Sequence record: PV763039.1
Origin: Escherichia phage WPEC6
Length of the DNA: 64,000 nt
Strand: one strand, 5' to 3'
In this document: piece after piece, positions 24,498-24,723 of the stretch
Layout: each line of letters opens with the position of its first letter
How positions within the stretch are numbered: position 1 is the stretch's first letter
Position numbers and translations under genes: made by a program
Notes under the pieces: model-generated
The model's database searches: none
Seen by the model: the letters and a program-made list of their open reading frames with translations, nothing else
What the model was told of the DNA's origin: nothing

Positions 24498-24529
24498 GTA
24501 CTCTGTACTCAAGTACTGTACTCTGTACT
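24498..24529. repeat. array of five GTACT pentamers (two copies of gtactctgtact)
   Basis: read in sequence. Confidence 0.5.
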
Positions 24530-24573
24530 AGATTAATAATTATTAAATATTAATAATAAATAATTATTAGATC
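24530..24573. repeat. AT-rich imperfect palindrome
   Basis: agattaataattatt ... aataattattagatct inverted repeat. Confidence 0.4.
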
Positions 24574-24723
24574 TAACAAACAGGTACAGTGTATCAGAAC
24601 TGGTACGTACAGATCAACTTCTATCAATTAAAAATAAAATAATAAATTATTATAAATAATACTTGATCTATAGATCAGTATGAAGTACAGTACGGAACAT
24701 CTCAACAAGAATGGAGGTGTGCA

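Follow-up and report, generated by a model that had tools for sequence, protein, structure and literature searches.

The window (the whole stretch of DNA analysed here, 64,000 nucleotides of Escherichia phage WPEC6, PV763039.1) comes from a Phapecoctavirus, a phAPEC8-like E. coli myovirus of ~150 kb belonging to the subfamily Stephanstirmvirinae. It contains at positions 24243-24723 a divergent intergenic region of 481 bp, instead of the about 300 bp assumed in a preliminary description of the locus, bordered on the left by a leftward gene of 107 aa (start 24242) and on the right by a rightward gene of 61 aa (ATG at 24724). Small early genes make up the leftward block, and to the right the 61-aa ORF is followed by two further small ORFs and by ten tRNA genes (25702-27627). 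An equivalent gene arrangement is found in the annotations of ESCO13, nepoznato, anhysbys and phAPEC8, and positions 23139-28214 are colinear with relatives; between 23500 and 25500, identity to more than 60 Phapecoctavirus genomes reaches 99-100%. The features of the gap are the following:

24243-24723, no strand: divergent intergenic region, 481 bp, delimited from the ORF list
24287-24315, minus strand: leftward promoter-like site TTCACT-17-TATCAT, found by a consensus scan, putative in function
24351-24380, minus strand: second leftward promoter candidate TTGCTT-18-TATCCT, read by eye, putative and weak
24418-24447, plus strand: P1, predicted sigma70-type promoter TTGACT-18-TACCCT with an extended -10 (TGc), called from conservation
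24461-24473, plus strand: conserved 13-mer CGAGCGCAGCGAG, ~15-30 nt after the expected P1 start
24486-24621, no strand: imperfect palindrome of ~136 bp, centred between 24551 and 24552, from arm alignment and a centre scan
24498-24529, plus strand: array of five GTACT, corresponding to a multiplied Box B (TACTCTRTACT)
24532-24569, no strand: AT tract 1, a 38-nt run of A/T only, core of the palindrome
24570-24581, plus strand: Box A, GATCTAACAAAC, common to five lineages and including a Dam site
24583-24616, minus strand: right-arm inverted copies of Box B, TACACTGTAC (24584-24593) and TGATCTGTAC (24607-24616)
24626-24661, no strand: AT tract 2, a 36-nt run of A/T only directly upstream of the P2 -35
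24663-24691, plus strand: P2, predicted proximal promoter TTGATC-17-TACAGT, called from conservation

None of the ten flanking ORFs has a Pfam hit, and all belong to PHROG families of unknown function. For the 107-aa neighbour, a PDB profile search gave a chance hit only (E = 0.23), no relative was present in IMG/VR, and the AF2 model (pLDDT 47.6) was too poor for use, while a word-index homologue search with the neighbouring proteins recovered five close relatives only. A recognisable DNA-binding protein or initiator encoded beside the gap was accordingly set aside, as the Pfam, PHROG and PDB profile searches gave it no support. The 61-aa protein (24724-24909; PHROG 26411, a family of unknown function) carries a C-x9-C-x2-C pattern plus HH near its N-terminus and a very acidic tail (DDDNVLDDDEGWEDLDW), features that might make it a DNA mimic or a zinc-binding protein of small size. 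Further to the right, two tRNA-like Rfam matches lack an ARAGORN report, one at 26088-26174 (tRNA-Sec model, 37.4 bits, below threshold) and one at 26399-26483 (tRNA, 39 bits, above threshold), and a sub-threshold RyhB-like match lies at 27714-27768 (29.4 bits, E = 0.02).

A genome terminus or packaging site was also considered for the gap and rejected: the 329-bp terminal repeat of phage Schickermooser (Korf 2019, PMC6563267), whose record begins with 329 bp that recur at its end, maps to window positions 1-329, and in the Schickermooser genome the gap is found 54.5 kb from the start. The first base of the window is the exact start base of the Schickermooser record. Gene order in the window is nevertheless scrambled relative to both Schickermooser and the complete genome of 536P1 (segments 1-943, 941-5044, 28210-60886, 60886-61726 and 62264-64000), with fragments of the genome right end at 0.9-5 kb and ~31 kb (94.75-125.6 kb of 536P1) inverted at 28.2-60.9 kb, directly after the tRNA cluster. 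Either a large-scale rearrangement truly took place, or the source record was assembled incorrectly.

The preliminary description had flagged three features between 24498 and 24700, namely a GTACT array, an AT-rich palindrome and GTACAG repeats, and a check of the sequence found every motif where it had been placed: GTACT starts at 24498, 24505, 24513, 24518 and 24525, and GTACAG at 24584, 24607 and 24685. The reverse complement of the latter, CTGTAC, starts at 24503, 24516 and 24523, and the three copies of CTGTACT in the 64-kb window all lie at this locus. The AT palindrome likewise has the reported structure, with arms at 24534-24551 and 24552-24569 that are 89% complementary and meet without a spacer, and an extent of ~44 bp (24530-24573) once the AGAT and ATCT flanks are counted. 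The three features are a single DNA-level element: the GTACT array is the left arm of the ~136-bp palindrome, the AT palindrome is its core, and two of the three GTACAG are in its right arm. When aligned, 24486-24551 and the reverse complement of 24552-24621 match in 51 of 71 columns (72%), and the outer arms without the AT core score 8, compared with -4.95 ± 3.6 in 2000 shuffles, only one of which was as good. Among all 63,864 centres scanned in the window, this long palindrome is the best (score 26, z 7.5), the next reaching 17.

The base composition of the core is equally exceptional. AT tracts 1 and 2 are the two longest A/T-only runs both of the 64-kb window and of the whole 149-kb genome of 536P1, and in these two sequences the only 40-bp windows with at least 38 A/T are found at these two sites. 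AT tract 1 begins 2 bp past the last GTACT, and AT tract 2 begins 57 bp beyond the palindrome core. Neither an AT run nor a GTAC cluster of this kind is present in the other divergent region of 536P1 (~76-79 kb). The 'repeat_region' annotations present in nepoznato, anhysbys and tuntematon turned out to be merely 55-bp marks over the AT tracts. A sigma70 promoter behind AT tract 1 was sought and rejected, as the only -10-like sequence, TACAGT at 24585-24590, has no -35-like sequence at 16-18 bp.

Seventy database genomes share the AT-centred palindrome locus, and 61 of these 70 relatives are 95-100% identical across the gap. Eight of nine aligned Phapecoctavirus genomes keep 8-10 GTAC and two AT runs of 35-38 nt, the ninth being BI-EHEC, discussed below. 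The region is not free of length changes: phage dw-ec has a 13-bp deletion, and the copy number of AAGGTTTT and the length of the AT runs vary among relatives.

The palindrome lies 40-170 bp downstream of the predicted promoter P1, and we also considered that it may act as RNA. The P1 leader would then fold at 24489-24618 into a long hairpin rich in A and U, with a role in RNase III processing or as a stability or attenuation structure of the rightward transcript; RNase III hairpins do occur in the early transcripts of T7 and lambda. Both the 272-nt leader and the 136-nt segment fold better than shuffled sequences (z -4.0 and -5.0, respectively; none of 200 as good), and the promoter upstream is conserved. 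However, the palindrome folded as a single strand gives the same -38.2 kcal/mol (z -5.0) for either strand, so that no G-U asymmetry marks the transcribed one; its fold as DNA has a z of -4.1, and the element is therefore best read at the DNA level. This identical folding of the two strands led us to reject a structure specific to RNA. No U-tract follows the hairpin, which is therefore not an intrinsic terminator, Box B occurs in either orientation in other phages, and the corresponding leaders of other lineages are unstructured (z -1.2 to +0.8). A known RNA family was likewise rejected, Rfam giving no hit in 24243-24723 at E ≤ 1 and only tRNAs and sub-threshold hits further right. Altogether, we regard an RNA element as very unlikely.

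The concentration of GTAC at the locus contrasts with its rarity elsewhere. In the 64 kb, GTAC is seen 61 times, versus 181 expected from a Markov model and 224 from composition, and is the third most depleted 4-mer behind CCGG and GGCC; the ratios of seen to Markov-expected counts are 0.29 for CCGG, 0.32 for GGCC, 0.34 for GTAC and 0.54 for CTAG, whereas GATC (1.01) is not depleted. The joint depletion of CCGG, GGCC, GTAC and CTAG looks like a signature of restriction avoidance. Ten of the 61 copies nevertheless fall within the 196 bp of 24498-24693, and in the complete 536P1 genome (149,471 bp, 137 GTAC) this locus provides the sole 250-bp window with more than four (it has ten). The cluster is highly non-random and far beyond chance. 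Its retention by a genome that otherwise avoids GTAC may reflect a role of the boxes as binding sites.

One relative seemed to indicate that these GTAC are dispensable. In BI-EHEC, 9 of the 10 GTAC of the locus are altered to ATAC or GTAT. A comparison of this genome (OL505078.1, 32000-58500) with window positions 5036-27314 showed that 11 of 17 aligned GTAC are lost and none gained, against an overall divergence of 1.7%, and that the changes (G>A or C>T) always concern the outer G or C. Nanopore chemistry of the kind used for this genome makes systematic miscalls at methylated motifs. BI-EHEC was assembled from nanopore reads alone, with Guppy 4.0.11, Flye and Medaka (PMC8686590). Given the identical change elsewhere in the genome and the nanopore-only assembly, we attribute the altered sites to a base-calling artefact and reject BI-EHEC as proof that the GTAC are dispensable. 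The pattern suggests instead that GTAC is modified (methylated) in the BI-EHEC virion DNA preparation and that the sites are not lost. This would agree with host restriction-modification systems specific for GTAC as the force behind its avoidance throughout the genome.

We compared the Phapecoctavirus gap with those of the phiWec188/179/PsgM04F clade, phi92 (Justusliebigvirus), Citrobacter phage Tr1 and Klebsiella phage phi1_175008. These five lineages of Stephanstirmvirinae share a common plan, consisting of P1 (TTGAC(A/T)-18-TACCCT with an extended -10), ~15 nt later an invariant 13-mer of the form CGAGCG-N-AGCGAG, a spacer that varies between lineages, a block of pure A/T, P2, a Shine-Dalgarno sequence and the first rightward gene, the distance from P1 to P2 being 210-243 bp in all of them. 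P1 and P2 are below the cut-off of the consensus scanner and are predicted promoters called from this cross-lineage conservation. The P1 motif TATGCTACCCTA is kept in all five lineages (phiWec188/179, phi92, Tr1 and Klebsiella phage phi1_175008 among them), and homologues of P2 (TTGAYY-17/18-TAnnnT, then Shine-Dalgarno and ATG) are present in phiWec188, phi92, Tr1 and the Klebsiella phage. On the leftward side, a comparison by eye showed that the -10 and spacer (AGGTAAGGTGATTTATCAT) of the promoter-like site at 24287-24315 are kept in phiWec188 and phi92, and the candidate at 24351-24380, which would stand back to back with P1 over 37 AT-rich bp, has a phiWec188 counterpart (TTGTGT-16-TATAGT with TGc). 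The phiWec188/179/PsgM04F clade carries in its gap an extra 70-aa gene, located between the leftward leader and P1 (2573-2785 in the contigs L005 and L006, 1216-1428 in L066), which is missing in Phapecoctavirus proper.

The preliminary description had proposed a major regulatory hub at the strand switch, and the leftward promoter-like sites together with two tandem rightward promoters conserved in five lineages bear this out, with the hub centred ~100 bp to the left of the segment 24498-24700 and at its right edge. P2 lies upstream of the small genes and the tRNA cluster, and corresponds to a sigma70 promoter with an UP element: its spacing is 17 bp, the 36-nt A/T run ends at its -35, and an AT block occupies the same position upstream of the P2 -35 in the four other lineages. 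It thus resembles rrnB P1 and the T5 early promoters, which are strong sigma70 promoters with UP elements. UP elements span ~20 bp, whereas the tracts here consist of 36-38 bp of pure A/T and AT tract 1 has no promoter behind it.

Within the spacers, 11-mers common to all five lineages (at most two mismatches, either strand) are just two, TACTCTATACT (Box B) and ATCTAACAAAC (Box A), compared with 0.03 in shuffles. The GTACT array of the window is a multiplied Box B, in which GTACTCTGTACT is present as two perfect copies (24498-24509 and 24518-24529), and the GTAC of the right arm start at 24584, 24603 and 24607. Box B has the form TACTCTGTACT twice in the window, TACTCCGTACT in most Phapecoctavirus and TACTCTATACT in phi92 and PsgM04F; TACTCCGTACT is inverted in a Klebsiella-type contig, and the box is thus found in either orientation. 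It is always 2-19 bp from the A/T-only block in the five lineages. Box A has the variant GATCTAACAGAC in phi92 and Tr1, where it is directly followed by a 17-bp near-palindrome, AGAC(A/T)ACTGAGT(A/T)GTCT; the two versions are mutual reverse complements save for the central base, appear operator-like, and have no clear counterpart in the window. Taken together, the P1-P2 spacers of the five lineages contain 11 GATC in 819 nt, approximately three times the density in the window (4.56 per kb). That the boxes occur in all five lineages on either strand points to protein binding on DNA and not to an RNA signal. Two known binding sites were examined and discarded, the TrpR half-site GNACT and the LexA half-box CTGTA, as their partner half-sites are absent at the needed spacing and phi92 has ATACT.

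The palindrome and AT tract 1 are absent from the sister clade (phiWec188/179, PsgM04F), phi92, Tr1 and the Klebsiella phage, and the spacers of these lineages fold no better than shuffled sequences. The multiplied, palindromic form is thus specific to Phapecoctavirus, and among the lineages compared only Phapecoctavirus proper has Box B multiplied and mirrored around an extra AT tract, the simpler form of the other genera (one box beside one AT block) being probably ancestral. Such a restricted distribution would also be expected if the palindrome had no specific function, having arisen by inverted duplication (template switching at the AT block) and box slippage and now decaying neutrally, with the single box and AT tract 2 doing any work. 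The arms, only 72% identical, and the slippage and indels seen in the AAGGTTTT copy number, AT-run length and dw-ec deletion are compatible with this scenario. However, the arms still hold eight GTAC although the genome purges this motif elsewhere, and the 95-100% identity in 61 of 70 relatives and the 8-10 GTAC in eight of nine aligned genomes argue against decay. We therefore consider a neutral remnant unlikely.

A further possibility is that the element controls transcription. Box B, Box A and TAGATCTA would then be operator or activator sites tuning the tandem promoters, the AT tracts would be UP elements or bent DNA, and a phage or host regulator might activate or silence P2, block read-through from P1, or govern the change between early and later phases for the tRNA genes on the right and the genes downstream of them. 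The element is located inside a conserved promoter region (P1, P2 and their 210-243 bp spacing in five lineages), and in each lineage the P2 -35 is directly preceded by AT tract 2. Overlaps with P2 itself are also consistent with control: the last two GTAC (24685, 24690) and GTACAGTAC overlap its -10, a perfect 14-bp palindrome, TGATCTATAGATCA (24664-24677), overlaps its -35 and spacer, and phi92 and phiWec188 likewise have AGATCT within the spacer of P2. The orientation independence of the boxes agrees as well. In contrast, most boxes are positioned off the core promoters, at a distance of 80-190 bp before the P2 start or of 45-150 bp after P1. With its near-consensus sequence, P2 would need no activator, and there is no sigma70 promoter behind AT tract 1. 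The neighbouring proteins gave no hit to a DNA-binding domain, and there is no Box B regulon in the window, where the box shows no excess elsewhere (52 matches at two mismatches versus 48.8 expected). Transcription control as the role of the element is possible, but on balance we hold it to be rather doubtful.

These observations make the element a credible candidate for a replication origin or control element, and not a chance pattern. As a tentative interpretation, to which we would not give even likelihood, the palindrome locus may be the phage replication origin, or one of several, of the type in which a promoter is followed by a downstream unwinding element; it is nevertheless the most probable of the readings considered, and an origin is the single mechanism that best fits the candidate element. 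Host RNA polymerase starting at P1 would transcribe into the A/T-only core, which would be opened by the negative supercoiling behind the polymerase and by an RNA-DNA hybrid. A putative phage protein would bind the inverted boxes flanking the core and either hold it open or load the phage primase-helicase on both strands, leading to bidirectional synthesis, and as its binding sites the boxes would keep GTAC despite the genome-wide purge. The annotation of the related phage rV5 includes a primase-helicase of the T7 gp4 type (PMC3606486).

Several features favour an origin. The only two most A/T-rich 40-bp sites are found here, and a role as UP element does not explain tract 1, which has no promoter. 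The boxes, shared by all five lineages and independent of orientation, adjoin the A/T block. The inverted boxes are symmetric about the A/T core in the best palindrome of the window, whose strands fold alike, and the conserved and presumably strong promoter P1 aims into the least stable duplex of the genome. Ten GTAC are retained where the genome lost approximately two thirds of this motif, and GATC is enriched in the P1-P2 spacers. The conserved site of Box B, ~80-115 bp upstream of the P2 start, would be odd for a repressor, and a near-consensus P2 needs no activator. The coincidence of the point of divergent transcription with the minimum of the cumulative skew argues weakly in the same direction, but the GC-skew minimum also falls where transcription changes direction and therefore gives no independent evidence; that skew follows transcription was already noted for rV5 (PMC3606486).

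Other observations speak against an origin. The palindrome and AT tract 1 are missing in the other lineages, where an origin would have to be a simpler unit of box and AT tract 2, and AT tract 2 needs no explanation beyond being the upstream element of P2. The arms, with their 72% symmetry, are what would be expected of a decaying old inverted duplication. There is no cluster of DnaA boxes, and the flanking proteins have no recognisable DNA-binding or initiator domain. Moreover, P1 and the 13-mer form a module present three times per genome, of which two copies have no AT tract, indicating that the module is not specific to an origin. Finally, replication in large lytic phages may be for the most part recombination-dependent. 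A DnaA-dependent origin in particular was rejected, as the gap contains one site with one mismatch (24384-24392) and the window has 105 against 89 expected, without clustering.

Comparison with known origins helps to place the candidate. The primary origin of T7 consists of the tandem promoters phi1.1A and phi1.1B followed by a 61-bp AT-rich region, and the T4 origins oriF(uvsY) and oriG consist of a promoter and a downstream DNA-unwinding element that is primed from an R-loop. The locus agrees with this type, since the predicted P1 (24418-24447) aims at AT tract 1 (24532-24569), which means that, as in T7 and T4, a promoter is directed into the most AT-rich stretch of the region; as in T7, promoters are in tandem, and the phage has short direct terminal repeats. 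The promoters here are of the host sigma70 type, in contrast to the T7 RNAP-dependent or MotA-dependent promoters of T7 and T4, and the flanking repeated boxes and long palindrome have no known equivalent at the T7 and T4 origins.

The preliminary description had instead spoken of iteron-like repeats beside an AT-rich unwinding element. The geometry holds, as a conserved box abuts an A/T block and the 38-nt run is 2 bp away from the repeats, but the repeats are not iterons as usually defined. Iteron origins (lambda ori, P1 oriR, F, pSC101) have helically phased units of 17-22 bp located at or in the initiator gene, usually with DnaA boxes. They share with the locus short repeats abutting an AT-rich block, enrichment in GATC and nearby transcription. 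Here, however, the units are 5-12 bp at spacings of 5-8 bp (GTACT at 7, 8, 5 and 7 bp, the 12-mer twice at 20 bp) and inverted overall, no initiator gene is found among the ten flanking ORFs, and DnaA boxes form no cluster. The overall layout also resembles that of HSV oriL, a 144-bp palindrome between divergent genes, and of archaeal ORB-DUE-ORB origins, where inverted initiator boxes surround an A/T core: HSV oriL/oriS and ORB-DUE-ORB have in common with the locus a palindrome (~136 bp here), a pure A/T centre, mirrored boxes and a location between divergent genes. Hosts and proteins are unrelated and the arms here are only 72% symmetric, and the likeness is therefore one of analogy only.

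The remaining conserved piece of the common plan is the 13-mer. CGAGCGCAGCGAG has one exact copy in the window, and an equivalent follows a P1-type promoter in all lineages. Its core GCGCAGC (24464-24470) fits the mini-hairpin DNA consensus GCGNAGC / GCGNNAGC (review PMC13037366), the core being GCGAAGC in phi92-type, Tr1 and Klebsiella-type phages, and the two other genomic copies carry GCGATAGC (one at 46570-46577), which matches the alternative form of the consensus. Among copies, the loop base varies and the stem and flanking CGA/GAG are invariant, and the complementarity of the flanks is inconsistent. Mini-hairpin motifs are known from G4-type phages, where primase starts at them, as well as from RSF1010 ssiA and N4 virion-RNAP promoters (PMC13037366). 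The GCGNAGC / GCGNNAGC core after P1 is shared with the complementary-strand origins of G4, St-1 and alpha3, with RSF1010 ssiA and with the N4 promoters; it differs in being located in double-stranded DNA downstream of a sigma70 promoter and not in a single-stranded phage genome, in its invariant CGA...GAG flanks, and in its three copies per genome, which make it not locus-specific. On the non-template strand, the 13-mer could be a displaced-strand priming or loading signal, a 5' RNA element or a protein site.

The module of P1 and 13-mer (TTGACT-N18-TA(C/G...)CCCT, i.e. TATG(C/G)TACCCTAA, then ~13 nt and CGAGCG-N(1-2)-AGCGAG) is found in Phapecoctavirus genomes at window positions 24418-24473 and 46525-46580 and at ~74.8 kb of 536P1; phi92-like and Klebsiella-type genomes have it at no fewer than two sites. 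The copy at 46525 is oriented opposite to the minus-strand genes around it, reads into a gap of 360 bp with nested hairpins, and may drive a small RNA. Approximately 25 unrelated metagenomic viral contigs of IMG/VR (L013-L060, e.g. L013 2024-2161) carry a back-to-back inverted arrangement TACCCTAT-CCCCCCC-AACGAGCGAAGCGAG, which corresponds to TACCCTA and the 13-mer without the TTGACA -35. This could be a chance pattern amplified by one family, as tens of random matches are expected, or a shared signal.

The locus might represent a bidirectional origin with a layout undescribed for tailed phages, where initiator boxes mirror each other across a pure A/T core, as in herpesvirus oriL or archaeal ORB-DUE-ORB origins, host polymerase transcribing from P1 fires the origin, and GCGNAGC provides a priming or loading signal. 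The initiator of such a bidirectional origin would be an uncharacterised small early protein conserved across Stephanstirmvirinae, and the GCGNAGC mini-hairpin would prime synthesis or load the helicase on the displaced strand. We consider this elaboration improbable.

Phapecoctavirus and phi92-like phages have been isolated repeatedly for therapy and food safety, and our search of the literature on the replication start and early transcription of these phages returned skew analyses tracking transcription only. The present work delimits a compact and testable cis-element, comprising two predicted promoters, two boxes, the two most meltable tracts and a mini-hairpin 13-mer. The element is a new and clearly bounded case within a familiar class of phage cis-elements, for which the preliminary description is improved to one AT-centred palindrome, and its reading as a conserved promoter region, or hub, is supported by the cross-lineage sequence comparison. 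Should it be a promoter hub only, the element would still pinpoint which early promoters are the strongest and provide a set of candidate operators. If it is an origin, it would provide an engineering handle (minimal replicons, copy-number reporters) and an example of binding sites kept despite strong restriction-site avoidance.
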